Positions 3,223 through 48,119 of a stretch of DNA of 50,523 nt are shown here, in pieces. This DNA is from a virus (lineage: Duplodnaviria; Caudoviricetes). The translations under genes and the position numbers were made by a program. The number at the start of each line of letters is the position of its first letter. Within the stretch, counting starts at the first letter, position 1. Location: IMG/VR virus record IMGVR_UViG_3300044515_000029, positions 1-50,523 of that record; one strand, 5' to 3'. The notes under the pieces are model-generated. The model saw only the letters and a list, made by a program, of their open reading frames with translations. It did no database searches and had not been told where the DNA came from.

Positions 3223-3463
3223 CAACCTCTCCATCGACAGCAGCGCGATCTCGAGAGGCGCGAAAAACACGCTCCCGCCACTCGCGCGGGACAAGAACAA
3301 AACCAGCGTCCGCAATCTTCTTGGATGCCTCGGGGCCAAGCGCGGTAACTAGATCGTCATGGGTCATGATGATGCCGCCGCCGGCAAGTACCGACTCCAT
3401 GCCGCCATTGTCCCAAGCGGCGCGGTTCGCTTCGCGCTGCACGAATGGGTCGTTTTCGATCAT
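3206..3463 (-). CDS. Hypothetical protein
   Basis: GGAGA SD; AGFVLVPRE motif common in phage early proteins. Confidence 0.55.
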   Translation of the reverse strand: MIENDPFVQREANRAAWDNGGMESVLAGGGIIMTHDDLVTALGPEASKKIADAGFVLVPREWRERVFRASRDRAAVDGEVDVQKT

Positions 3464-9562: not shown

Positions 9563-9939
9563 GCGTATTCCTCCATTGATTCGACGGCGCGACCCCGCGC
9601 GATGTTTTCTTCCATTGCGCGCTGATCGCGGCGCTTTATGTTTTCGTCGCCCGTTACCGCTTCCAGGTGCGTAGGCTCGATGCAGAGCGAGTTGACGCAG
9701 GTATGGTCGACCTCGTGGCCGGGCGGGATCGGGCCGACGAATACCTCGTATGAGATTCGGTGCGCTCTGCGCGTGACGTGCCGGCCGCCCTTTAGGCGAA
9801 TGTTTAGACGGCCGTCCTCGCCACCGCCGCGACGCTTCGCGCGCTTGCCCGTCCAGATGCGGCAACCGGTCAGCGGGTCGAGCACGCTGTTCGCCAGAAG
9901 GCGCGCGGCGAGGCTCGCGTATTTACGCGGGACGCTCAT
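9559..9939 (-). CDS. HNH endonuclease
   Basis: GCRIWTG...AHRISYE...VDHTCVNSLCIEPTHLEAVT..EN. Confidence 0.9.
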   Translation of the reverse strand: MSVPRKYASLAARLLANSVLDPLTGCRIWTGKRAKRRGGGEDGRLNIRLKGGRHVTRRAHRISYEVFVGPIPPGHEVDHTCVNSLCIEPTHLEAVTGDENIKRRDQRAMEENIARGRAVESMEEYA

Positions 9940-10793
9940 TACTGCTGATCGGCCTTGACGAACTCGCCGCCCACCAGCGTGTAGAAAACGTCCGGCTCAA
10001 TGCCGTTGTCTCCTACCTTGCTCGCGCGAATGTGCAGCAGCTTTCCGTCGTCGTCGTGCTCGCATAGGACGATGGCGGCGTCCTTGCTGGCCTTGGCGCG
10101 ACCGTACCGGCCGATGCTCATGGCGACAGCGGCTATGCCGGTGGCGCTCGACGCTGAGCTGTCCCCGGTGGCGCTCGACGCTGATCTGTACCCGGTGGCG
10201 CTCGACGCTGAGCTGTACCCGGTGGCGCTCGACGCTGAGCTGTCCCCGGTGGCGCTCGACGCTGAGCTGTACCCGGTGGCGCTCGACGCTGAGCTGTCCC
10301 CGGTGGCGCTCGACGCTGATCTGTACCCGGTGGCGCTCGACGCTGAGCTGTACCCGGTGGCGCTCGACGCTGATCTGTACCCGGTGGCGCTCGACGCTGA
10401 GCTGTACCCGGTGGCGCTCGACGCTGAGCTGTCGGCGTCCGCATGATTCGATGTAGCCGGATTGCAATGCGCGGTCACCCAGGCAATAGCGCGCCCGATG
10501 TAATCAGGAAGCGAAATCATGGCTTTGACGTGCAGCTTTCCGCTCGCGATCTTGCTGTCATCGGAGTGCGTGGAAATAACTCCGCTGGCCTCGACCTCCG
10601 CGAACAGCGACACGCCTGGCGCGTAGTAGCGGAAAACATCGAGCGGGTTTTCGCAGGAGTGAAATCCTCCCTCGCACGCCTTGACTTCGCCATCATGCTC
10701 GAAGGTCTCGCCAACTTTGAATTGGTAACCGCGACACTGCATGTTCGCGTCGAAACCCTTGAAGGCAACTATTTTTGTGTCTGTCTCTTTCAC
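9939..10793 (-). CDS. Phage protein with 11 x 9-aa SASSATG(Y/D)(S/R) repeats
   Basis: N-terminal AFKGFD..MQCRGYQF.VG...C..GFHSCENPLDVF.YY domain; GTG start with GGAG SD (alternative ATG 10838). Confidence 0.8.
   Translation of the reverse strand: MKETDTKIVAFKGFDANMQCRGYQFKVGETFEHDGEVKACEGGFHSCENPLDVFRYYAPGVSLFAEVEASGVISTHSDDSKIASGKLHVKAMISLPDYIGRAIAWVTAHCNPATSNHADADSSASSATGYSSASSATGYRSASSATGYSSASSATGYRSASSATGDSSASSATGYSSASSATGDSSASSATGYSSASSATGYRSASSATGDSSASSATGIAAVAMSIGRYGRAKASKDAAIVLCEHDDDGKLLHIRASKVGDNGIEPDVFYTLVGGEFVKADQQ
10138..10433. repeat. 27-bp tandem repeat, 11 copies
   Basis: CCGGTGGCGCTCGACGCTGA(G/T)CTGT(A/C)C, varying at only two positions. Confidence 0.95.
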
Positions 10794-10834
10794 GGGAGTA
10801 TCTCCATTTGAATTGGTTGGAATTTGTGAGGCGC

Positions 10835-11002
10835 TCATGCGTGCACCATCGGCGCGACGCGCGCACTGCGGACGGTCTCGACCGCCTTGCACTTCGGGCA
10901 ACGAAACTTGTTCGCCGGCAGCGGGCGGCCCCACTGGTTGACAATGAAAGCCTGGTAGCCGTCGCTGTGTCCGCACTTGCAGCGGATTGTTACGGCGCTC
11001 AT
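10835..11002 (-). CDS. Small Zn-ribbon protein
   Basis: IRCKCGH...FRCPKC. Confidence 0.55.
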   Translation of the reverse strand: MSAVTIRCKCGHSDGYQAFIVNQWGRPLPANKFRCPKCKAVETVRSARVAPMVHA

Positions 11003-11274
11003 AGACCCGCCTTCGCGAGCGCGTCGCGCGCAGCTCGGCACGGGCATAGCGGCGCCTCCCGGTCTGAGTGAATGCAATCGCACTCAGCCAGCAGCGGCAT
11101 GACATCGCGCAGCGCCTCGGAAAGATCGGGCGCGGCGGATCGCTGGACACCTAGCGCGATGCACGCTGCAAGCTCGACCTCGCTTAGATGCGCCTCGCTA
11201 TGGTTGCCGCGTTTCGCGAAAACTTGGCGCGCGAGCGCCTGTCCGATTTCAACCGGCGTGCGATAGGCGCTCAT
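10999..11274 (-). CDS. Hypothetical protein
   Basis: AAPDLSEAL...ARDALAKA motif typical of phage early proteins. Confidence 0.6.
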   Translation of the reverse strand: MSAYRTPVEIGQALARQVFAKRGNHSEAHLSEVELAACIALGVQRSAAPDLSEALRDVMPLLAECDCIHSDREAPLCPCRAARDALAKAGL

Positions 11275-12518: not shown

Positions 12519-12929
12519 TCAGCCGCGCAATTTTTTCCGGCCGGGATTTGCTTGAGCGGTAGATTCGCTGACCTTTCCCTCGATATATCCACGTATCTGT
12601 TCTTTTGCTGTGTCCGGTAGGTTGTCGTACTGTTCGCGCGTCACAGGAGAGAACGGCCACGCATTAGCGAGCTGAACGACGTTTGCCGCAGATCCACTTG
12701 GCAAGTGCTTTGCCTTCACTTCGCGTCCCAATAGAAAATCGACGCTGCAATGCAGAGTATCAGCCGCGTCCTCGAGCTTGTCCGTAGGCATTCCCCTTGA
12801 CTTCCAGTTGGTGATGTCCTGAGCGCCGACGTTCATTTTTTCCGCAAATTTGCTCTGGTTCATCCCGCGGGACTTCGCAAGATCAAGCGCGCGATCAATT
12901 GAGCGTTTATTTCGGTCAGTAGGAACCAC
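12519..12929 (-). CDS. cI: CI-like repressor (Cro/C1 HTH)
   Basis: GMNQSKFAEKMNVGAQDITNWKSRG...SVDFLLGR; divergent from cro; GTG 12929 inferred, 7 nt after TAGCAT. Confidence 0.8.
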   Translation of the reverse strand: MVPTDRNKRSIDRALDLAKSRGMNQSKFAEKMNVGAQDITNWKSRGMPTDKLEDAADTLHCSVDFLLGREVKAKHLPSGSAANVVQLANAWPFSPVTREQYDNLPDTAKEQIRGYIEGKVSESTAQANPGRKKLRG

Positions 12930-12965
12930 GGCCGCGATGCTAAACAATCCGTTTATGTATTTGTT

Positions 12966-13004
12966 ACACGCGGTGTTTGACATGGAGTACACACCGTGTT
13001 TAAT
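12966..13004 (+). promoter_or_regulatory. PR-like promoter with two operators
   Basis: TTGACA (12977..12982)-16 bp-TTTAAT; ACAC-N3-GTGT at 12966..12976 and 12989..12999. Confidence 0.75.
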
Positions 13005-13013
13005 ATGCGCGGC

Positions 13014-13223
13014 ATGACACCTGACGAGACTTCCGATTTGATCACTGCGTCCGGCGGCGATGTCGCTTTCGCTCGACTCCTTGGAATCGACCATGAGCCG
13101 TATGTCGCCCAGCGCGTCAACAACTGGAAGCGGCGAGGAATCCCATCGTCTGTCCTCGTTGCTCACTACGACACCATTCGATCGCTGAAGCGACGACTAG
13201 CACAGCAGCAGTCGGCCGCGTGA
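13014..13223 (+). CDS. cro: Cro-like repressor
   Basis: LITASGGDVAFARLLG...QRVNNWKRRGIP; position. Confidence 0.8.
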   Translation: MTPDETSDLITASGGDVAFARLLGIDHEPYVAQRVNNWKRRGIPSSVLVAHYDTIRSLKRRLAQQQSAA

Positions 13224-13795: not shown

Positions 13796-13911
13796 GCGAA
13801 CCTGTTGACGCGGAAATCGAGACCGCCGCCGAGCTGCTGCAATCCGCTGCGTCCGAGGAAGAACGCGACGCTGAGCTCAGCGCAATCGTCAAGAGGCTGG
13901 AAACGATTTGA
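13792..13911 (+). CDS. Small hypothetical protein
   Basis: MSEPVDAEIE...; overlaps with both neighbours. Confidence 0.45.
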   Translation: MSEPVDAEIETAAELLQSAASEEERDAELSAIVKRLETI

Positions 13912-14684
13912 GTATCCGGCTTATGACGATGGTGTGGGAGCTTGATCTCGCCAGTACGGACAAGCTCGTACTGCTAGCCCTCGCCGACAATGCCAACGAT
14001 GACGGCACCTGTTGGCCGAGCATCCGCAAGATTGCAGAGAAATCGTCCCTATCCGAAAGGGCGGTGCAGAACGCAATCTCAAGACTTCGGGACGCGGGAA
14101 AGCTACAAATTACTGAGCGCTATGGTCGCAGCAATCTGTTCACGATCACCCCCGCAGGAAATGCACCCCCGCAGGAAATGCACCCCGCACCAAATGCACC
14201 CACCCCCGCAGCAGATGCACCCTCACCCCCGCACGTGGTGCGCCCTGGGGGTGCACGTGGTGCACCCATAACCATCATTGAATCATCATCTGAATCTTCA
14301 AGGGAACCGTCACGCACTACGGCGCGCAAAGGCCGCGCCTCGCCAGACCCGCTTGAATTCTTTGATTTAAAAATCGCCTACCCGAATAGGGCAGGCGACC
14401 AGGGATGGCGTAAGGCGCTGCGCGCGGTCAATGCCCGCCTCGCCGAAGGTTACACGTGGATCCAAATTATCGACGGGGCCAAGCGATACGCTGCCTACGT
14501 CCGAGCGACCTGCAACGAGGACACGCAATACGTCAAGCAGGCGTGCGCGTTCGTCGGCCCTGACCTTCATTTTCTGAGCGACTGGAAGCTGCCGCAGACG
14601 AAATCCGGCGCGCGGCTCAAATCAAACATAACCGCGGCTGAGGAATTTATGCGCCGCACGGAGCCAACCCTTGAAACCGTCTGA
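13908..14684 (+). CDS. Replication initiator (O-like, N-terminal wHTH)
   Basis: KLVLLALADNANDDGTCWPSI..IA..S.LSERAVQ.AI; internal iterons. Confidence 0.85.
   Translation: MSIRLMTMVWELDLASTDKLVLLALADNANDDGTCWPSIRKIAEKSSLSERAVQNAISRLRDAGKLQITERYGRSNLFTITPAGNAPPQEMHPAPNAPTPAADAPSPPHVVRPGGARGAPITIIESSSESSREPSRTTARKGRASPDPLEFFDLKIAYPNRAGDQGWRKALRAVNARLAEGYTWIQIIDGAKRYAAYVRATCNEDTQYVKQACAFVGPDLHFLSDWKLPQTKSGARLKSNITAAEEFMRRTEPTLETV
14147..14267. repeat. Putative replication origin iterons
   Basis: About six copies of CCCCGCA-N5-TGCAC (e.g. CCCCGCAGGAAATGCAC twice) inside the initiator gene, as in lambdoid origins. Confidence 0.7.
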
Positions 14685-15649: not shown

Positions 15650-15882
15650 TCTGGTTACGTGGTGACGAGCACTACATTGCGAGCGCCTGCGGAAAATACA
15701 CGGTCACCCGTGACGTGAGGGCCGGCGGGGAAATTCGGTACTCGGCGTGGCGTCGAGTAAAGGCGGCGCCCCCTGGGCAATCGTTCAACCCGCCGGTCAG
15801 CCTGGGCATGCAGTTCAAGACCGCCGACGCGGCAAAGCAGGCGTGCGTTGACGATTCGATGCAGCAGCAGGCCGCGGCATGA
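15646..15882 (+). CDS. Hypothetical protein
   Basis: ATGA overlaps; FKTADAAKQAC motif. Confidence 0.6.
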   Translation: MIWLRGDEHYIASACGKYTVTRDVRAGGEIRYSAWRRVKAAPPGQSFNPPVSLGMQFKTADAAKQACVDDSMQQQAAA

Positions 15883-16310
15883 TCCACGCCTCAGACCTGA
15901 GCCCTGCCGTGCGCGCGAAGCTCGGCATCGTCGACAAGCCCAAGAAGGGGAGACCTAAGCAGGACGAGTCAGCGAACCGGGCGTTCATGATTCAGTGTCT
16001 CGGGCTCAAGATGCCGCCGATGTTGGCTCAATGGCGATTCACGAACAGCAAGCACCCGAACGCGGCATCGCACAAGTGGCGCTGCGATTTTGTGTTCCTC
16101 GAGTATTTCGTCATGGTTGAGATCGACGGCGGAATCTGGATCAAGGGCGCGCACGGGCACCCGACCGACATTATCCGCAACATGCGAAAGCAAAACGACG
16201 CGATGCTTCTCGGCTACACCGTGCTGAGATTCACGCCGGCCGAAGTTAAGAGCGGTCACGCGGTCACGTTCACGCAGCAAGTTCTCAAGGGAAAGGGGTG
16301 GAATCTATGA
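15879..16310 (+). CDS. Vsr/DUF559-like PD-(D/E)XK endonuclease
   Basis: WRCDFV...VEIDGG.W..G.H...KQNDA.LLGY.VLRFT. Confidence 0.75.
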   Translation: MIHASDLSPAVRAKLGIVDKPKKGRPKQDESANRAFMIQCLGLKMPPMLAQWRFTNSKHPNAASHKWRCDFVFLEYFVMVEIDGGIWIKGAHGHPTDIIRNMRKQNDAMLLGYTVLRFTPAEVKSGHAVTFTQQVLKGKGWNL

Positions 16311-16780
16311 GCACGGTTCGCAGCTATACGCCGCAAGTGATGCGCGATGACTACGTTCCCGAGGAAACGCGCCAGGCGCAGCGACGCCTAGCCCCGCACC
16401 TGAAGCCGATCGACGCGCTGCTGATGAAGTGGGCGCCCGAAGCTCGGCATGACGGTGCGCCTCGTTGGCCTGTCGAGACGATGCTATCGCGAATCATCGA
16501 CCAGACTGCGCTCGGAGCATCACAGAGCGGCAGCGGTGCGAGCCTGGCGGCGCCGGCTGATGTCGAGTTTGCAGACTGGGCTGTGTCGTCACTCATGCCT
16601 GACCAGCGTGAGGTTATTTTCGCCGAGTATGTGAAATACAGCGGGCTTTCGGTTGCGAGAAAATGCTCGAAGCTCGGGATGACAGAGGGGTACTGGACAG
16701 CGACGCTCAAGGAAGCGCGCGGCGGTGTTTACCTGCTTTGCAAGACCTACGGTCGAATGCTTCATCTAGAAATAGTTTGA
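16307..16780 (+). CDS. Q-like late transcription regulator
   Basis: IDALL.KWA...AVSSL...QREVI.AEY...KCSKLGM C-terminal HTH; position before late genes. Confidence 0.6.
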   Translation: MSTVRSYTPQVMRDDYVPEETRQAQRRLAPHLKPIDALLMKWAPEARHDGAPRWPVETMLSRIIDQTALGASQSGSGASLAAPADVEFADWAVSSLMPDQREVIFAEYVKYSGLSVARKCSKLGMTEGYWTATLKEARGGVYLLCKTYGRMLHLEIV

Positions 16781-16851
16781 ACCTAGGTTTAGACCCCTGT
16801 TCAATGCACCCTCATGAAAGTCATGCGTAAAATGGAAGCCACGCCAAAAGC

Positions 16852-17337
16852 ATGAGCGTAAGTTCGCTCAATCTGTATGACCAGGACGGACGGATTCACG
16901 GCCATTACGTCTACATGTTGCTTTGTCAGGATGCCAAGGTCGGGCCGATCTACGTAAAGATCGGAATTACGACAAGTCCGATCCAGAGATTCAGGGCGCT
17001 TCGTTGCGGATGCCCGGTCCAACCTAGGATTTTCGCTTATTTTGACGCGCGCACTAAGACGGCGTCTCGAAGGATCGAATCGTCTCTGCATGCCGCGTAT
17101 GCAGGCTGGAACGCTCATCTTGAGTGGTTTTGCTTCACTGAGGCCGATAAGTCTCGGTTCAACGAGATACGGCAAGCGGTCATCTCTGCGAATACCAATG
17201 GGCCGGTCCAGTGGAACAAAATTTCGGTACGTGAGTTGATCCGTATCGGCGAGAGAAACAAGCGATTCTCGCAGCGCCTTTTCGCTACTCGCGGCCCGGC
17301 GTACCAGGCTTTCATTAAGGATCAGGCAGCATGTTGA
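16852..17337 (+). CDS. GIY-YIG (T5orf172-like) nuclease
   Basis: YVYMLL...YVKIGIT.SP..RF..L..GCP...IESSLH...EWF. Confidence 0.75.
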   Translation: MSVSSLNLYDQDGRIHGHYVYMLLCQDAKVGPIYVKIGITTSPIQRFRALRCGCPVQPRIFAYFDARTKTASRRIESSLHAAYAGWNAHLEWFCFTEADKSRFNEIRQAVISANTNGPVQWNKISVRELIRIGERNKRFSQRLFATRGPAYQAFIKDQAAC

Positions 17338-17935
17338 AAGAAGACGCCCGGTACGATTACGTCGAAGTGCAGTCTGACCCGCGACCTGTTGTCGCGCGCA
17401 TGTACTCACGTCCTGCCGGGCGTTTTTCTCCACGTCGGCACGGAACGATCACGCTGCCGACCGGCAGGCCGAGGATTCTCGATTGCGCTGCGCTACCGAT
17501 GCAGTCCTACCTGCAAGAGCGTTTCTCGCACGTCGGCAGCCGCAGCCACGCTGCCCGGCTGCTGCAAGCTGAGAATAAACGCCGTTATGATGCGGCCGCT
17601 GCTAGGGGAAACCTGCCGCGGTCTCGAAGTTCCGGCGAATGGCATCCGATCACCGCCGCTGAAATTGCGGCAGGCCTGTCAACGCTACGGGACGATCACC
17701 CGAGAAACGGCCGAACGCCGCCGGCAATTGAATCCGACTTGTTGCCGATGAGGCGCAGACGCCCCAAAATTCAACACCACCGCGCGAAAGTAGGTAAGGC
17801 GTAAAGCTAAGCCTTCCCCTTCGGGGCAGAGCGGTATCAATCGCGGCGCCGGACGAACTACCGGCAGAAAAAGAACCGGCCGTAAGGTCCGGCAGCACAG
17901 CCGCAACTCATACCCGCCATAGAGCGGGTTTTTTT
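17338..17935 (+). ncRNA. Candidate ~600-nt structured RNA or late-operon leader
   Basis: About 13 consecutive stems with G-U pairs; UUCG, GAAA and GUAA loops; repeated CGA loops; ends in a terminator. Overlapping ORF 17331..17804 is unconvincing. Confidence 0.5.
17912..17935 (+). terminator. Intrinsic terminator
   Basis: ACCCGC-CATAGA-GCGGGT-TTTTTT. Confidence 0.85.
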
Positions 17936-17971
17936 ATTCCTTAATTTCAATCAACCCGCTTGGAGCAGTCC

Positions 17972-18499
17972 ATGTTCTCGAATTTCCGTAAGTCACTGAT
18001 GAGCGTGTTCGCCGCGGCCGCGGTGTTCACGATTCTGAGCCTCTCGCCGCCCCCGGCAGAAGCCGGCGCAATGTCGAATTTCCTGACGAACAAGGTTATC
18101 GACTTCATCATGCGCGGCCAGGCGTACACGCCGCCGACGACCGTGTTCGTCGCGCTCGCGACTGGCGCGGGAAGCTCTGCCGCTTGCGGCACCGAAGTGA
18201 CCGGCGGCTCTTATGCGCGCGTTGCGGTCACGAGCTCGCTCACCAACTGGGCGGGCACTCAAGGCGCGACTACGACCGCAGTCTCAAGCGGTTCCAGCGG
18301 GCAGACGTCCAATAACGCGACGATTACATTCCCATCGCCTACGGCGAACTGGGGAACCGTCATCGAGTTTTGTGTGCTGGATGCCAGCTCGGGCGGCAAT
18401 TTGCTCTGGCGCGCATCGCTGACCACGTCGAAGACTGTAAATAATGGCGATGCCGCCCCGTCCTTTGCGATCAGCGCGCTGACTTGGACTCTCAACTAG
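17972..18499 (+). CDS. Small beta-rich fibre subunit with predicted signal peptide
   Basis: GGAG SD; MFSNFRK-hydrophobic-AEA/G; mature part TVFVAL.T..GTEV.GGSYAR..V...ITFP.PTANWGTV is a recognisable phage fibre-subunit pattern. Confidence 0.7.
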   Translation: MFSNFRKSLMSVFAAAAVFTILSLSPPPAEAGAMSNFLTNKVIDFIMRGQAYTPPTTVFVALATGAGSSAACGTEVTGGSYARVAVTSSLTNWAGTQGATTTAVSSGSSGQTSNNATITFPSPTANWGTVIEFCVLDASSGGNLLWRASLTTSKTVNNGDAAPSFAISALTWTLN

Positions 18500-18518
18500 T
18501 ACATGCCGGAGAATCATA

Positions 18519-20096
18519 GTGAGCCCTCCGTCGAGACTCGAAATCTCGATTCCGACCGCATCTTTCGACGGGGTTTTTCACGGCAGATACCCTCATGGAG
18601 ATGCGCCAGCAGGCCCTGTTCTACAGGGCGCTGCGGCTGACGCTACGTCGGCCAGCGGAGTGCTAACCACTAGCGGCGGCGGCGCTCCAATACCAACGCT
18701 TTTTATCTCGACCACGGGAAGCGACTCGAACCCAGGAACGCTGGCGCAGCCTTGGGCGATCACATCGCTGCTGTCTAACAGCGCGAATCAAGCATCGATG
18801 GTCGGCCAGGTCATTGGCATGGTAGCGGGCACCTACGCGACCAGCGGCATGCAGAGCACGACATCACCGGGTTCCTTTGATACCCCGGTTCTGACTTTGC
18901 CGCAGGGCTCTGCTGGCAATATCACGACATTGGTCTCTTGCAATTCGAGCGGTGTTTACACGCAGCGCGTGGCGATCCTCGATAACTCATCGAGCACGTC
19001 TGGCAACCCGCTCATCGGCCAAGATCCAAGTCACGCAGGATTTTGGGCGCTCGACGGACTGACCATTAAGGGGAATCCGACCAATGCGGCGGCTGTCTTC
19101 ATGGTGACTGGCCGCTACGCAGCGAGTACTACGGGAGGCACTTCCTTCGCCGCATCCAACATCACGATTCAGAACTGTGAGATTTTCAGTTTCACGACGA
19201 CCAGCAACGGAGGATCGAATTCCGGCGGCGTTATCATGCAGGGAACTACCGGCACGAAGTTCCTGAACAACTATGTTCACGACATCGTAGCCACCGGCAG
19301 CGCGACCAACATAGAGCACTGTCATGGTTACGAGGAATTCGGCTGCATAAATTCCGTCATTCACTTCAACACCTTCGCCAATTGCCAGGGCGCAGCAGTC
19401 GACATTAAGACCGGATGCTCTGGGCAGGATATTGCGAACAACTATTTCTATCTGTGTGGCACGACAGATGGCGGTAACGGCTCCGGCGCAATCACGGGAT
19501 GCGATGGAGCGGAGGGAAACCCGAATACCCCAGGAACCTCCTACTCAATCCATCACAACATCTTCGATAGCTGCAACTCGGAGATCTCGACCGATGTAAA
19601 CAACGTCAGAGAGCAAAGCGGAAGCACGTTTAATAACACGATCTATAACTCTCGGGCTGGATCAATCAACCCGATCAATTTTCGAGTCTTGAACGGCGCG
19701 TCATGGCAGTTGTTCAACACCATCCTAGTGACGACCGCTAATAGCAGCGGCGGCGGAAATGCTGGCTCAGGCGGCGTAGCGCTCACCACTGGCGGATGGT
19801 CGAATGTGAAAAATAACTGCTATTTCCTGCACTCAAGCAGTTCGATGTGGGGACAAAGCGGAACAAATTTCAGTTCTCTATCCGCCTGGCAGGCCGCCAC
19901 CGGATCGCCAGATGCCAACTCGATTGCGGCAAATCCGGTGTTCTCTTCTGCCATTACTCCTGGCAATGGCACGACGCAGTTTCAACTTGGGAGCGGCTCG
20001 CCATGCTTGGGGACGGGCGTAGGTGGCGTGAACATGGGGGCGTGGGATGGAACCGTTACGCAGATCGGCTGCAACTTTGAAACTGCGGTGAGCTAA
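18519..20096 (+). CDS. Right-handed beta-helix (pectate lyase-like) spike or depolymerase
   Basis: FIST.GSDSNPGT.AQPW, repeated NN/NT stacks, C-terminal FQL.SGSPCLG.G...MGAW. Confidence 0.75.
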   Translation: MSPPSRLEISIPTASFDGVFHGRYPHGDAPAGPVLQGAAADATSASGVLTTSGGGAPIPTLFISTTGSDSNPGTLAQPWAITSLLSNSANQASMVGQVIGMVAGTYATSGMQSTTSPGSFDTPVLTLPQGSAGNITTLVSCNSSGVYTQRVAILDNSSSTSGNPLIGQDPSHAGFWALDGLTIKGNPTNAAAVFMVTGRYAASTTGGTSFAASNITIQNCEIFSFTTTSNGGSNSGGVIMQGTTGTKFLNNYVHDIVATGSATNIEHCHGYEEFGCINSVIHFNTFANCQGAAVDIKTGCSGQDIANNYFYLCGTTDGGNGSGAITGCDGAEGNPNTPGTSYSIHHNIFDSCNSEISTDVNNVREQSGSTFNNTIYNSRAGSINPINFRVLNGASWQLFNTILVTTANSSGGGNAGSGGVALTTGGWSNVKNNCYFLHSSSSMWGQSGTNFSSLSAWQAATGSPDANSIAANPVFSSAITPGNGTTQFQLGSGSPCLGTGVGGVNMGAWDGTVTQIGCNFETAVS

Positions 20097-21319
20097 TGCT
20101 TAAAAGAATTGTAGCGATCGCGTTTATGGCACTCGTGCCGGCGTTGTCATGGGCGAATTACGCCTTTGTGAGCCAAGCGCAGAATGCATCAAACGGCAAT
20201 ACGGTCACTGTGTCGCCGGCGGCTGGACATTTCCTAATTGTTGTGTCTCAGACCAGCGCCGGCGGTGGCACGCCTACCGCCTCGATATCGGACAATCTAG
20301 GAGATACCTGGACTGTTGGCAAAGCGACGTCTCAGGACGGAACTATAGCCAATAACTTTTTCTCAATATTCTACTTACCGGTCGCGCCCGCCGGCATAAC
20401 AACTATCACCCTTACCTACGCTGGCGGAACGCCTGGTGCCGCGAATATCGCCTTTGTCGAATATAGCGGTCTTTCCTCCACTGGATTCCAGGGCGTCTCA
20501 ACCTTCAATCAGCAGCAAAATCCTGGAACCGCAACCAATGCGATTACGACTAACAACATCAATGTCGCCACGCAACCTGGGGCATTGATTGGATGGTTCA
20601 ATGACGGGGCTGGCAGCGGTGGTTGGACTGCCGGAACGTCGCCGCTTACGTTTACCATGCGCGTCAACGGCAGCTTCAACATGCTGGAGGACGCGCGCGT
20701 TACGGCGACCGGCAACGCTTTGGCGAATGCGACCAGCACTCATGGTACGACCCAGACGTATATAACCTACGCGATATTCATTGCTGAGCCATCATCAGGC
20801 GGTGGTGCGGCGCTGGCATCTGCCGCAACCGATGCGGTTACCGCCGTGGGTGCGCTAACGACTGTATCATCGGCCTTCGTTCCGCTCCTGCTCGACAACG
20901 CCTCGCGCTCTGACAATCTTTTGCTTGGCACCGCGCCGGGCGACGGAACGGGAGACAGCGCTCGCATTGGCGGAACGAAGCTCAAGCAATGGGCGGCCGA
21001 TGCGAACGCCATGTTCTCGCAGCTCTACCCGAACCGCAGCCTGCAGACGCCGACGACTGGTTTCTCTATTGCCGCCTCGATTGGCGTCACTCAACTCGTT
21101 CTCAATCCGGCGGGCACGCTGGCAACGGGTACGGTCACGCTGCCGACTCTGCCCGGCGATAATCAGCCGTTCACGCTCATGACGTCTCAGACGGTCACCA
21201 CGTTGACCGTCAACACGGCGGACACAAGCACCATCAACGGCGCGCCGACCACGATCAGCGCTAATACGAGCGTCAAATTTCGGTACATAACCTCGCTGAA
21301 TAGGTGGTTCCGCGAATAG
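20096..21319 (+). CDS. Fibre-associated protein with signal peptide and DGTGD motif
   Basis: MLKRIVAIAFMALVPALSWA/NY; GTAPGDGTGDSAR...MFSQLY resembles the T4 gp9/gp10 N-terminal motif. Confidence 0.7.
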   Translation: MLKRIVAIAFMALVPALSWANYAFVSQAQNASNGNTVTVSPAAGHFLIVVSQTSAGGGTPTASISDNLGDTWTVGKATSQDGTIANNFFSIFYLPVAPAGITTITLTYAGGTPGAANIAFVEYSGLSSTGFQGVSTFNQQQNPGTATNAITTNNINVATQPGALIGWFNDGAGSGGWTAGTSPLTFTMRVNGSFNMLEDARVTATGNALANATSTHGTTQTYITYAIFIAEPSSGGGAALASAATDAVTAVGALTTVSSAFVPLLLDNASRSDNLLLGTAPGDGTGDSARIGGTKLKQWAADANAMFSQLYPNRSLQTPTTGFSIAASIGVTQLVLNPAGTLATGTVTLPTLPGDNQPFTLMTSQTVTTLTVNTADTSTINGAPTTISANTSVKFRYITSLNRWFRE

Positions 21320-21333
21320 CAGGAGCCTAAAGC

Positions 21334-22914
21334 ATGGCTTTATGGACGTTCGACTCTTCGGCGGTCACGTTTGATTCGACTTCTGCGACATTCGACGGAT
21401 CACAGGGCGGCGGGGGAGGGGCGGCGCTTGCCGGCGCATCAACCGATGCGGTCACGGCGGCAGGCGGGCTAATCAATTTCGCGAGCGTCACGCTCGTGGC
21501 GCCGCTCTACACCGGGGTAGGGGGCATATTCGACCCGAACCTCGTATGGCCGTTCTCGACGCCTGTCGTCGGGAGCGTGGTCAAGTACGATCCGGCAGCT
21601 ATCACCGTGCTGCCAGACGGCCAAATAAATGCGACCGCGAACAACGTCGCGGCTGAGATTCAGTATTTCGACGGCGTCAATCTCAATGAGATAGACGTTT
21701 TCATCACGCCGACGATGGTCGGCTACGCCTTTGACGGCACGATCGCCTCGGGCACTTTCGTAGGCGCTGCGGCCCTCGCTGCTGCTGCTGCGAATCTATC
21801 GAGCGCTGCCGGCGTACTGACGACCGGAATACCGCTACAGGCGGCAGCCTCAAACCTGACGTCGGCGGTCGGCGCGCTCAACACCGCGATCCAATTGGCG
21901 TCCGCTGCCTCGGATTCATCGAGCGCGAGTGCGCTGCTCGGTGCTGTAGGCGCGAACCTGGCGGGGGCTGCAACCGACACGAGCAGCGGGAACGCCTCGC
22001 TGACGACGCTGATCGCGGTTGCTGGTGCGGCTGCTGATGTCGCGAGCGCTGCGGCGGCTCTGTCGACCGCGATTCAACTGGCAGCCCAGGCCACTGACTC
22101 GACCACCGCGTCAGGCCCGATTCGCACGAACATCCTGTTTATCGGCGCGGCGACTGACTCTATCAGCGGCGCGGGCCTCTTGGGCTCGATACAGGTACTT
22201 CAAGCCGCGGCGAACGATGTAACGACTGCGTTCGGCAGCCTGATTACTCAGATTGCACTCGCGGCGGCGGCGAGCTCGACCAGCATCGCGGCCGGTAGCC
22301 TGACATCGCAGATCAAGCTATCCGGATCCGCGACCGATTCAGTCACCGCAAGCGGCGCCCTGGGCGTCCTCGCGCTCAACTTAAGGCCGTCGCATTTGAT
22401 AGTCACATCGTTCTACAGCAACCAGCTTCTCGGCCAGGCGGGACCGCTGCCGTATGGCGAGTTTTTCTCGAGAGTGGATGATGTCGAGATTTACGCGATC
22501 GACTGGACCGGCTGGCTCACTAATTTTTGGGAGCGCGGCGCGATGGTTGCGCCCGGCTCGGTGATTCGACCGACTGCGCCGAACGGCTTCCAGTTCGTCA
22601 CGACCCTGGGCGGGCAGTCCGGCAATGCAGAGCCGGTATGGCCGAACGCAATCGGTCAGATGGCTACTGACGGCAGTGTCGTCTGGACTTGCGAGGCGAT
22701 CGACCTCAACTCGCTTTTCGCGAACGTGCAAAGCGCCGAATGGGTAGTTCAGAGCGGCATCACCGTGAAGGGACAGGAACAGTCGGGGAATCTCACGCTC
22801 GCGGAGCTCGACGCCACGGGCGCAACGGCAGGCCAGAACTACGCGGTCAACGTCGAAACGACGATGAGCGACGGCGAAACCAAGGTAGGCCAGATCGTCC
22901 TCAAGGTTCGATAA
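21334..22914 (+). CDS. Fibre scaffold/adaptor with 12 copies of a 20-aa Ala-rich repeat
   Basis: TFDS repeats at N-terminus; LxGAATDxxxAxGxLT repeats; C-terminal YAIDW.GWL and EPVWP...TDGSVVWT. Confidence 0.7.
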   Translation: MALWTFDSSAVTFDSTSATFDGSQGGGGGAALAGASTDAVTAAGGLINFASVTLVAPLYTGVGGIFDPNLVWPFSTPVVGSVVKYDPAAITVLPDGQINATANNVAAEIQYFDGVNLNEIDVFITPTMVGYAFDGTIASGTFVGAAALAAAAANLSSAAGVLTTGIPLQAAASNLTSAVGALNTAIQLASAASDSSSASALLGAVGANLAGAATDTSSGNASLTTLIAVAGAAADVASAAAALSTAIQLAAQATDSTTASGPIRTNILFIGAATDSISGAGLLGSIQVLQAAANDVTTAFGSLITQIALAAAASSTSIAAGSLTSQIKLSGSATDSVTASGALGVLALNLRPSHLIVTSFYSNQLLGQAGPLPYGEFFSRVDDVEIYAIDWTGWLTNFWERGAMVAPGSVIRPTAPNGFQFVTTLGGQSGNAEPVWPNAIGQMATDGSVVWTCEAIDLNSLFANVQSAEWVVQSGITVKGQEQSGNLTLAELDATGATAGQNYAVNVETTMSDGETKVGQIVLKVR

Positions 22915-23502
22915 ATGACCGAATCCTACAAGACCGCGAGAGAGAAGATTGACGCAGCGCTGAGCCGTGCTCCGGTTCGCAAAGTCGTCATCCTTAAGCG
23001 CGGCTCTGACGGGTTATTCATTCAGCCGACGACCACGGGAGCCGAGTACGAGTTTGAGGAAGCGCACAGGCGCATGGCCTTCGCTGAGGGCTACAAGTAC
23101 GCGGACGAGACTACCGGCAACACCCGCACGTTCGACCCGAAAGGGAATTACATCTGCGGCGAGTGCAACAAGGCCGATGACAAGCCATACGCCCTCTGCC
23201 TGTTCGTCTGCCAGGACGGCAAGCCACTCTCCGCGATTGATATCGACCGCAAGGCCGGAAGCTGCGGGTACTGGGAGGACACATGCGCGGGAGACCCCGA
23301 GCTCAAGAATCCTCAGAAGCCCGAGACCGTGGCCGTGTACGGAGTAGCGAAGAACGGCGAGGGATTTGGCTGTCATCGTTGTCCCTTCGCTTCTGATGCG
23401 ATTGCGCCGGATAGCCGAGGCAGAAAGCTCTACTGCGGGAAGGGATCGTTTCGCGTTGCTTGGAATGCCTGCTGTGAGTTGAACGGAGCGCCGACGGTAT
23501 GA
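22915..23502 (+). CDS. Cys-rich protein with two HiPIP-like motifs
   Basis: CGEC...C...GSCGYW and CHRC...C...ACC. Confidence 0.6.
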   Translation: MTESYKTAREKIDAALSRAPVRKVVILKRGSDGLFIQPTTTGAEYEFEEAHRRMAFAEGYKYADETTGNTRTFDPKGNYICGECNKADDKPYALCLFVCQDGKPLSAIDIDRKAGSCGYWEDTCAGDPELKNPQKPETVAVYGVAKNGEGFGCHRCPFASDAIAPDSRGRKLYCGKGSFRVAWNACCELNGAPTV

Positions 23503-28309: not shown

Positions 28310-28431
28310 TTTTGTCGCCGCCGATGCGGCGATATTGATTTTTCATTGACCACAGGCGCTTTAAGGCGCCGTGCCCATCGGGAGTCGACCTCCAGGGGTG
28401 TTCGTAAAACACACCACGCAGGAGATTCCCC

Positions 28432-32943: not shown

Positions 32944-32967
32944 ACCGCCGCCTCAACCCCTCATCAG

Positions 32968-32989
32968 AACCCGCCTCGGCGGGTTTTTT
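32968..32989 (+). terminator. Intrinsic terminator
   Basis: AACCCGCC-TC-GGCGGGTT-TTTT. Confidence 0.75.
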
Positions 32990-34548: not shown

Positions 34549-34612
34549 CAACCAACCCCGCAACCCATCGTAGGCCGCCTTGTGCGGCCTTTTAATTTTC
34601 GGAGCCGCATAC

Positions 34613-43240: not shown

Positions 43241-43263
43241 TTCACTGATTTAGGCAAACAACG

Positions 43264-43286
43264 ACCCCGCTCAATGCGGGGTTTTT
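43264..43286 (+). terminator. Intrinsic terminator
   Basis: ACCCCGC-TCAAT-GCGGGGT-TTTT. Confidence 0.75.
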
Positions 43287-47904: not shown

Positions 47905-48072
47905 CCGCGCTGCGAAATCGTGCCCACATTTTTCTCCAAGTGGGCGTGGAGAATCGCTTGACTGGTACTATGCCAAACAATGGCTTATATACGAATATCC
48001 CGCATGGATTCCCCACGCCACCAACGAACATAAAGTTATATATATCAATCGCTTGAGACTTTATGAGCGCGA

Positions 48073-48119
48073 GGCTACGAACCAGGAGGCCGGGAGTTCG
48101 AATCTCTCCGGGCGCACCA
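48073..48119 (+). repeat. attR core (copy of tRNA-Arg 3' end)
   Basis: Identical to 81..127. Confidence 0.95.

Follow-up and report, generated by a model that had tools for sequence, protein, structure and literature searches.

In the late module of phage lambda the Q gene is followed by the promoter PR', a short terminated leader (6S RNA), the terminator tR' and the late genes. The CsrB/RsmZ sponges are non-coding RNAs that carry one short motif in many copies, enriched in loops. Short RNAs that arise as by-products of antitermination can become small RNAs (sRNAs), and in Shiga-toxin phages the terminated PR' transcript gives rise to the sRNA StxS; both statements come from an excerpt of one source (PMC7547250). 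We analyzed positions 17338-17935 (598 nucleotides, nt) of the virus record IMGVR_UViG_3300044515_000029 (Caudoviricetes). The whole stretch of 50,523 nt that was analyzed is referred to as the window. A preliminary description had interpreted this segment as a densely structured, possibly non-coding RNA of about 600 nt that acts as a decoy or leader. With a probability of roughly 0.85, we read it instead as the messenger RNA (mRNA) of a real gene followed by a structured 3' untranslated region (3' UTR) of ~107 nt and a strong intrinsic terminator, and not as a non-coding RNA. In this reading the segment represents an ordinary gene with its terminator, from a family that has no annotation. Its parts, together with the spacer to the next gene, are the following (L081 is a homologous metagenomic locus described below):

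17331-17804, plus strand: predicted gene of a very basic protein of 157 amino acids (aa; isoelectric point, pI, 11.2) from an unnamed phage family, assigned by homologues, a single conserved frame and the ratio of non-synonymous to synonymous substitution rates (dN/dS)
17805-17911, plus strand: 3' UTR with two predicted stem-loops (~17811-17832 and ~17843-17904), assigned by folding
17912-17935, plus strand: intrinsic (Rho-independent) terminator with a GC-rich stem of 6 base pairs (bp), a 6-nt loop and 7 T, from a terminator scan
17936-17971, plus strand: 36-nt spacer with a GGAG ribosome-binding site, partly conserved in L081 (alignment)

Judged by its sequence relatives, the open reading frame (ORF) 17331-17804 is very probably a protein-coding gene. 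Seven nucleotides at its start are shared with the end of the upstream gene, and an AAGGA motif precedes the start by 8 nt. A word-index protein search with the 157-aa protein returned the query alone, whereas HMMER, run without an index over 1.84 billion representatives, yielded 16 further proteins at E ≤ 0.001 (best E 6.6e-26). With the query counted, the matches at this threshold number 17, and 14 are at E ≤ 1e-10. Fifteen of the other 16 were aligned with the query; the one omitted is P0010, which is 1554 aa long and gives 18 short repeated matches. Identity to the query is 35-55% among these 15 aligned relatives and 30-55% when seven extra members found by a profile search are added. The pI lies between 9.7 and 11.2 in each of the 23 listed members, among them the query. 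The family is small and unnamed and belongs to uncultured, mostly soil, phages.

Invariant residues are distributed throughout the whole ORF, and more than 20 relatives conserve the reading frame as protein. The conserved blocks are MLKEDxRYDYVE at the N-terminus and LPxQSYLQERF and LRAENQRRxxLAxARGNxxxSRTS in the central part; insertions and deletions (indels) are found between the blocks and are in-frame. Two length forms can be distinguished: eight of the 16 aligned sequences stop right after ...SRTS, and the rest carry an invariant SGDWHPITxxEI. A C-terminal tail (SDLL...IQH.HR) is common to four aligned sequences, the window's protein among them, and conservation therefore reaches the stop of the ORF at 17804.

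Searches for relatives at the DNA level covered several collections. No match was obtained among 50,697 phage records, either by blastn of 16800-18500 or by tblastn of the 157-aa protein and of the 160-aa protein encoded upstream of it. Blastn of 16298-17960 against 80 loci carrying a gp80-like gene, the first structural gene downstream of the spacer, gave no match either. These 80 loci were excluded from further comparison; in L004 the gp80-like gene stands in a different context. Scans of viral contigs with the 157-aa and 160-aa proteins, with the upstream MUG113-domain protein, with P0004 and P0007 and with alignments A2 and A6 found no relatives, and neither did scans of genome contigs with alignments A2 and A5. 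A metagenome scan gave one locus, L081, which shares synteny with the window and has an identity of about 80% to it in the two genes upstream. The order of elements in L081 is a DUF559 gene, a gene for a 158-aa protein, the family member, a 3' UTR, a terminator, a spacer and a gp80-like gene. The family member is of the short form (105 aa) and ends in a plain TAA, downstream of which no similarity was seen in any forward frame (read by eye); the 3' UTR measures 113 nt.

Only the frame of ORF 17331-17804 is conserved with respect to L081 (tblastn E 8e-19). An overlapping ORF in frame 2 and three antisense ORFs gave tblastn values of at least 0.066. The 90 aligned codons comprise 24 identical codons, 22 synonymous changes and 44 non-synonymous changes, and 22 of the 46 identical residues use different codons. 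We obtained dN = 0.456 and dS = 1.34, corresponding to a dN/dS of ~0.34. The substitution test proposed in the preliminary description thus came out as a coding pattern.

The near-continuous stems that had been listed for the segment are indeed found in predicted folds. The 13-bp stem 17341-17353/17414-17426, the hairpins 17434-17461, 17519-17582 and 17594-17623, the 3' stem-loops 17811-17832 and 17843-17904 and the terminator hairpin are all present in minimum free energy (MFE) or centroid folds. Comparison controls, however, make the fold look less exceptional. The segment folds with z = -2.99 relative to dinucleotide shuffles, with 0 of 100 shuffles as good, but its reverse complement reaches z = -2.92 (energy -269.8 kcal/mol, compared with -248.3 kcal/mol for the given strand). 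After regression on GC content the segment is only 1.4 standard deviations more stable than 34 other 598-nt phage windows. A like-for-like shuffle test placed it lowest of 14 windows (-3.38); the 13 comparison windows, located in long ORFs, had z-scores from -2.76 to +1.2, including -2.41 and -2.17. The local z-score in 120-nt windows averaged -1.0 inside the segment versus -0.6 outside, and local folding peaks in ORF 18519-20096 were as strong as any in the segment. At the start of that ORF (18520-18719), three overlapping 120-nt windows show z-scores from -3.0 to -3.6 on both strands.

A comparison of the fold with L081 is a weak test of structure conservation, as it involves two sequences only. 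In the alignable coding part 43 of 85 MFE pairs can also pair in L081, compared with 29-40 of 85 if the partner is slid by 1-3 columns. Ten of the 52 changed pairs remain canonical. Changes on both sides affect seven pairs, compared with eight at a slide of +1, and the covariation suggested as a check is therefore not seen in this pair. For the homologous transcript of L081 (457 nt) we obtained z = -1.24, a stability matched or exceeded by 12 of 100 shuffles. We infer that the extra folding stability of the window's ORF is a local property of GC-rich sequence and not a conserved structure.

An unpaired CGA motif had been described as recurring in the loops. The segment contains 18 copies of CGA, a frequency of 0.030 that is at background (0.029 for the window as a whole). 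Five of these copies are wholly unpaired in the MFE fold, where 3.2 are expected. The longer motif CGATCAC occurs three times in the segment and 19 times in the window, compared with 12.0 ± 2.8 in shuffles; two of those in the segment code for an identical x-Ile-Thr in the frame of the ORF (frame read by eye). According to a direct-repeat search, no element of the segment recurs elsewhere except for the terminator-like GCGGGTTTTT family. The Infernal search against Rfam, also proposed in the preliminary description, identified only the transfer RNA (tRNA) of the window at gathering score and nothing in 17338-17935. The best sub-threshold match was isrK (RF01394) at 17864-17934, with 19.9 bits compared with a gathering score of 50 and E 0.18. 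IsrK is an Hfq-binding prophage RNA, and the resemblance consists of this weak match over the terminator-proximal 71 nt and of the location in a prophage regulatory region. Since the match is essentially a hairpin plus a U-tract, 17864-17934 is not a member of the isrK family.

The terminator that was said to close the segment is clear: the hairpin 17912-17929 with its U-tract is among the strongest plus-strand sites between 12000 and 25000. In L081 a terminator at 3375-3392 with a T-run occupies the same position and is the top plus-strand site of that locus. As the position is kept and the stem differs, the function of the terminator is kept without sequence identity. The region 17805-17935, comprising 3' UTR and terminator, folds with z = -2.34 (matched by 2 of 200 shuffles). 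In L081 the 3' UTR likewise contains stem-loops and a terminator (z = -3.14) and cannot be aligned with that of the window. A strong terminator is located 36 nt before the first structural gene and this layout is kept in L081; a terminated early/late transcript is therefore reasonable. Of the terminated leader that had been proposed, the boundary terminator is confirmed, but the transcript appears to be an mRNA for a protein and not a non-coding leader.

In the window the segment separates the regulatory genes from the first structural gene. Its surroundings comprise the following features:

12519-13166, strand opposite to the right arm (the right arm is plus): repressor-like gene
13908-14684, plus strand: replication-initiator gene, followed by small genes
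15879-16310, plus strand: DUF559 nuclease-like gene
16298-16780, plus strand: gene of a 160-aa protein from an unnamed family, a candidate late regulator whose C-terminal half resembles sigma-70 region 4 (homologue search, profiles)
16777-16805, plus strand: weak promoter-like element TTGAAC-17 nt-TTCAAT after the gene of the 160-aa protein (by eye)
16852-17337, plus strand: MUG113/T5orf172-domain gene (Pfam MUG113 E 2e-09, T5orf172 E 1.4e-08)
17972-18499, plus strand: first structural gene, coding for a podophage GP4 gp80-like fibre/head protein (Pfam Gp80 E 1.6e-41, PHROG 240)

The 160-aa protein has 26 relatives at E ≤ 0.001 (27 proteins if it is counted as well), all of them unnamed and metagenomic, and is 73% identical to the 158-aa protein of L081. 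A PDB profile search with this family gave three matches, all to sigma factors over region 4 (E 0.15-0.35), and one of the 26 family members matches Sigma70_r4 with E 0.0011. The NCBIfam model PA0613_fam matches the 160-aa protein with E 2.8e-4, which is below cut-off; an excerpt of PMC11871291 terms PA0612-PA0613 'adjacent regulatory genes'. The ESM Atlas feature search lists 'Antitermination protein Q' first (0.96), together with a cluster that carries PF06530 on 42% of its members (score 0.95). The 160-aa protein is similar to Phage_antitermQ (PF06530; QuuD of the prophage DLP12) in size, genome position and this ESM Atlas lead, and it aligns weakly with QuuD in its C-terminal part (33 columns). 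It differs from that family in having no match to its hidden Markov model (HMM) and in that its best PDB profiles are those of sigma region 4. We infer that it is a putative small late regulator that binds DNA or RNA polymerase (RNAP).

The genes of the 157-aa and 160-aa proteins appear to travel together. The longest contigs of the two families are equal in size in six cases including the window (50523, 46521, 32936, 19643, 12432 and 3334 nt), which indirectly suggests a conserved gene pair. L081 runs from the gene of the 158-aa protein straight into the homologue of ORF 17331-17804. The MUG113/T5orf172 gene is absent there and is therefore probably an insertion upstream of the basic-protein gene; in the window it would be a mobile insertion between the genes of the 160-aa and the basic protein. 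As far as the sequences tell, the conserved layout is the 160-aa putative regulator, the basic-protein gene, a structured 3' UTR, the terminator, the 36-nt spacer and the structural genes.

Several results weigh against the interpretation given so far, and they concern the gene, its fold, the promoter and the putative regulator. The dN/dS value was derived from a single DNA pair with dS near saturation, and the other relatives are products of metagenome gene callers. The codon usage of ORF 17331-17804 is atypical (log-odds -0.157 versus 0.137 to 0.486 for 18 long training ORFs); several small neighbouring genes also have low scores. The GC content at third codon positions (GC3 0.63) shows no excess over that at first positions (GC1 0.65). 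No curated family was found for the 157-aa protein in Pfam, PHROG, NCBIfam or PADLOC, the last of which has no match for the 160-aa protein either. The ESM Atlas model of the 157-aa protein is poor (predicted local confidence, pLDDT, 0.36), with no usable feature match and with structure matches that all have template-modelling (TM) scores below 0.4, and a PDB profile search with the family alignment gave a match at chance level only (E 1.3). ORF 17331-17804 alone folds at z = -3.26. Because of this value and of the lowest rank among the 14 windows, some excess structure in the window's copy must be regarded as real and unexplained. A sigma-70 scan lists no promoter near the gene in the window or in L081. 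The promoter-like element in the window has a counterpart in L081 (TTGAAC-16 nt-TATAAC at 2852-2879, whose spacer contains the inverted repeat ACGGGT/ACCCGT, by eye), and both were given little weight because the scan lists neither. Concerning the regulator, neither the PF06530 HMM nor the Pfam scan identifies a Q-family match in the window, and hhalign against E. coli QuuD (PF06530) aligned 33 C-terminal columns with E 0.053 and a probability of 1%.

Two other readings concern the RNA itself. In the one favoured by the preliminary description the segment would be a non-coding decoy of the CsrB/RsmZ type, whose CGA loops titrate a factor and whose ORF is fortuitous. Like those sponges the region contains many predicted hairpins within a few hundred nucleotides, and the z-score of about -3, the lowest among the same-size windows, would fit such an RNA, as would the atypical codon usage and the three CGATCAC copies. 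Unlike the sponges the region appears to code for a conserved protein, with more than 20 relatives, in-frame indels, a single conserved frame and a low dN/dS. Its CGA motif remains at background without enrichment in loops, it belongs to no Rfam family, its predicted structure is not retained in L081, and the opposite strand folds equally well. A conserved ORF with coding substitutions had itself been named as the outcome that would speak against the decoy. Because conservation and such substitutions were observed, the decoy reading fails, and we consider it highly improbable. The other reading accepts the coding gene and adds a second use, in which the 3' end (~17805-17935) is released as a stable regulatory sRNA similar to StxS. 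The structured 3' UTR in both copies, the sub-threshold resemblance to an Hfq-binding sRNA at 17864-17934 and the precedent of antitermination by-products that were turned into sRNAs (PMC7547250, in the excerpt cited above) are in line with it. The two 3' UTRs, however, share neither alignable sequence nor a common loop motif apart from the position of the terminator, the isrK score is far below the gathering score, and good folding is expected of any GC-rich UTR with a terminator at its end. We consider such a second use unlikely.

If the segment is an mRNA with a boundary terminator, the way in which the late genes are expressed has to be considered. The locus resembles the lambdoid late module in its place after the replication and nuclease genes and right before the late genes, in the intrinsic terminator at the boundary, in the small putative regulator gene just upstream and in the extra terminators of the late region. 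It differs in that the transcript carries the conserved 157-aa gene (and the MUG113 gene) and not a short non-coding leader, in that a clear constitutive promoter or pause signal was not identified, in that the upstream protein has no HMM match to Q families, and in that fibre-like and structural genes come next and not lysis genes. Intergenic terminator-like hairpins on the plus strand of the late region were observed at 28313-28334, 32966-32987, 34572-34590 and 43263-43283. Downstream of two of them, at 32966 and 43263, the same TTTCATTTCTGGAG stands just ahead of the next start codon. These hairpins may be the late-gene hairpins to which the factor of the preliminary description was supposed to bind. 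For the whole window the terminator scan lists 34 terminator-like sites on both strands, compared with 20.7 ± 4.3 in shuffles. The extra plus-strand terminators in the late region form a pattern that fits processive antitermination as in lambdoid phages, as far as the excerpt of PMC7547250 describes it.

In the mechanism that we propose, transcription from upstream would stop at 17935 unless the polymerase were made resistant to termination. With the first structural gene only 36 nt beyond the terminator, expression of the late genes would probably require read-through. That the terminator marks the early/late boundary and that a phage antitermination function provides the read-through is a tentative proposal, which we rate at somewhat below even odds. 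The best candidate for this function would be the 160-aa protein, with its features resembling sigma region 4 and its Q-like lead. The basic 157-aa protein co-occurs with this regulator and may be a component of the same switch. Its charge, its small size and the constant position of its gene next to that of the putative regulator suggest, with low confidence, a role in nucleic-acid binding. Late activators are used by many phages outside the lambda group. The terminator might just end the early operon, and the late genes could be transcribed from their own activator-dependent promoter within 17900-17971 without antitermination, with the 160-aa or the basic protein as activator. The partial conservation of the spacer in L081 (ATTTC..TCAACCC..GGAG) and the part of the 160-aa protein that resembles sigma region 4 or a helix-turn-helix motif would be compatible with this. 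The distance from U-tract to start codon is, however, only 36 nt with no sigma-70-like promoter listed there, several intrinsic terminators in the late region agree better with processive antitermination, and the first ESM Atlas lead of the 160-aa protein is an antitermination protein. We therefore regard the activator as the less likely of the two, although it is far from negligible. A more specific version of the antitermination proposal is rather speculative. In this version the 160-aa protein, the basic protein and the terminator would form a possibly undescribed late-switch module of soil phages, in which the terminated leader is the mRNA of a participating basic protein (which could bind RNA as a co-antiterminator or modulate the regulator) and the structured 3' end may yield an StxS-like sRNA.

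The window derives from a soil metagenome and holds a lambdoid-type prophage integrated at tRNA-Arg. Among sequencing runs, two DNA runs that contain it were listed, both from a single soil-metagenome sample which may be its source, and no RNA run. A tRNA-Arg(ACG) is located at 51-127, adjoining an ORF of integrase size, and a direct repeat of 55 nt with 96% identity connects 73-127 with 48065-48119 and corresponds to the 3' part of the tRNA. The presence of this copy at 48065-48119 indicates a prophage with both attachment sites; the two repeats are probably these sites, and DNA past 48119 would be that of the host. Four direct repeats of ~28 nt (CACCCCCGCAGGAAATGCACCC-like) were observed at 14141-14245 within the replication-initiator gene and are likely origin iterons. 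A further array of 11 tandem copies of a 27-nt unit at 10084-10488 (96-100% alike in the middle of the array) lies inside the minus-strand ORF 9939-11150 and encodes a 9-residue protein repeat. The start of the gp80-like gene was set at ATG 17972 after its relatives, which begin with MFS... or MLS.... The gene is followed by long fibre-like ORFs and then by the terminase subunits and the portal gene, so that the gp80-like gene and the fibre-like ORFs (17972-23502) are placed before the terminase genes in the window. In L004 (2568-5556), which contains the closest gp80 relative with 73% identity, the gp80 gene comes after an unannotated ORF of 495 aa (398-1885) and small ORFs. This different upstream context indicates a shuffle of modules.

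The analysis corrects the initial interpretation in that a GC-rich phage gene can pass by eye for a densely structured RNA, even with a z-score of about -3. An index-free homology search revealed conserved protein coding where a word-index search did not. What emerges is an unnamed family of basic proteins that travels with an unnamed putative regulator at the early/late boundary of prophages from uncultured soil sources, before a conserved terminator. If it is true that this pair controls late transcription, it would represent a further variant of antitermination or activation control in phages.

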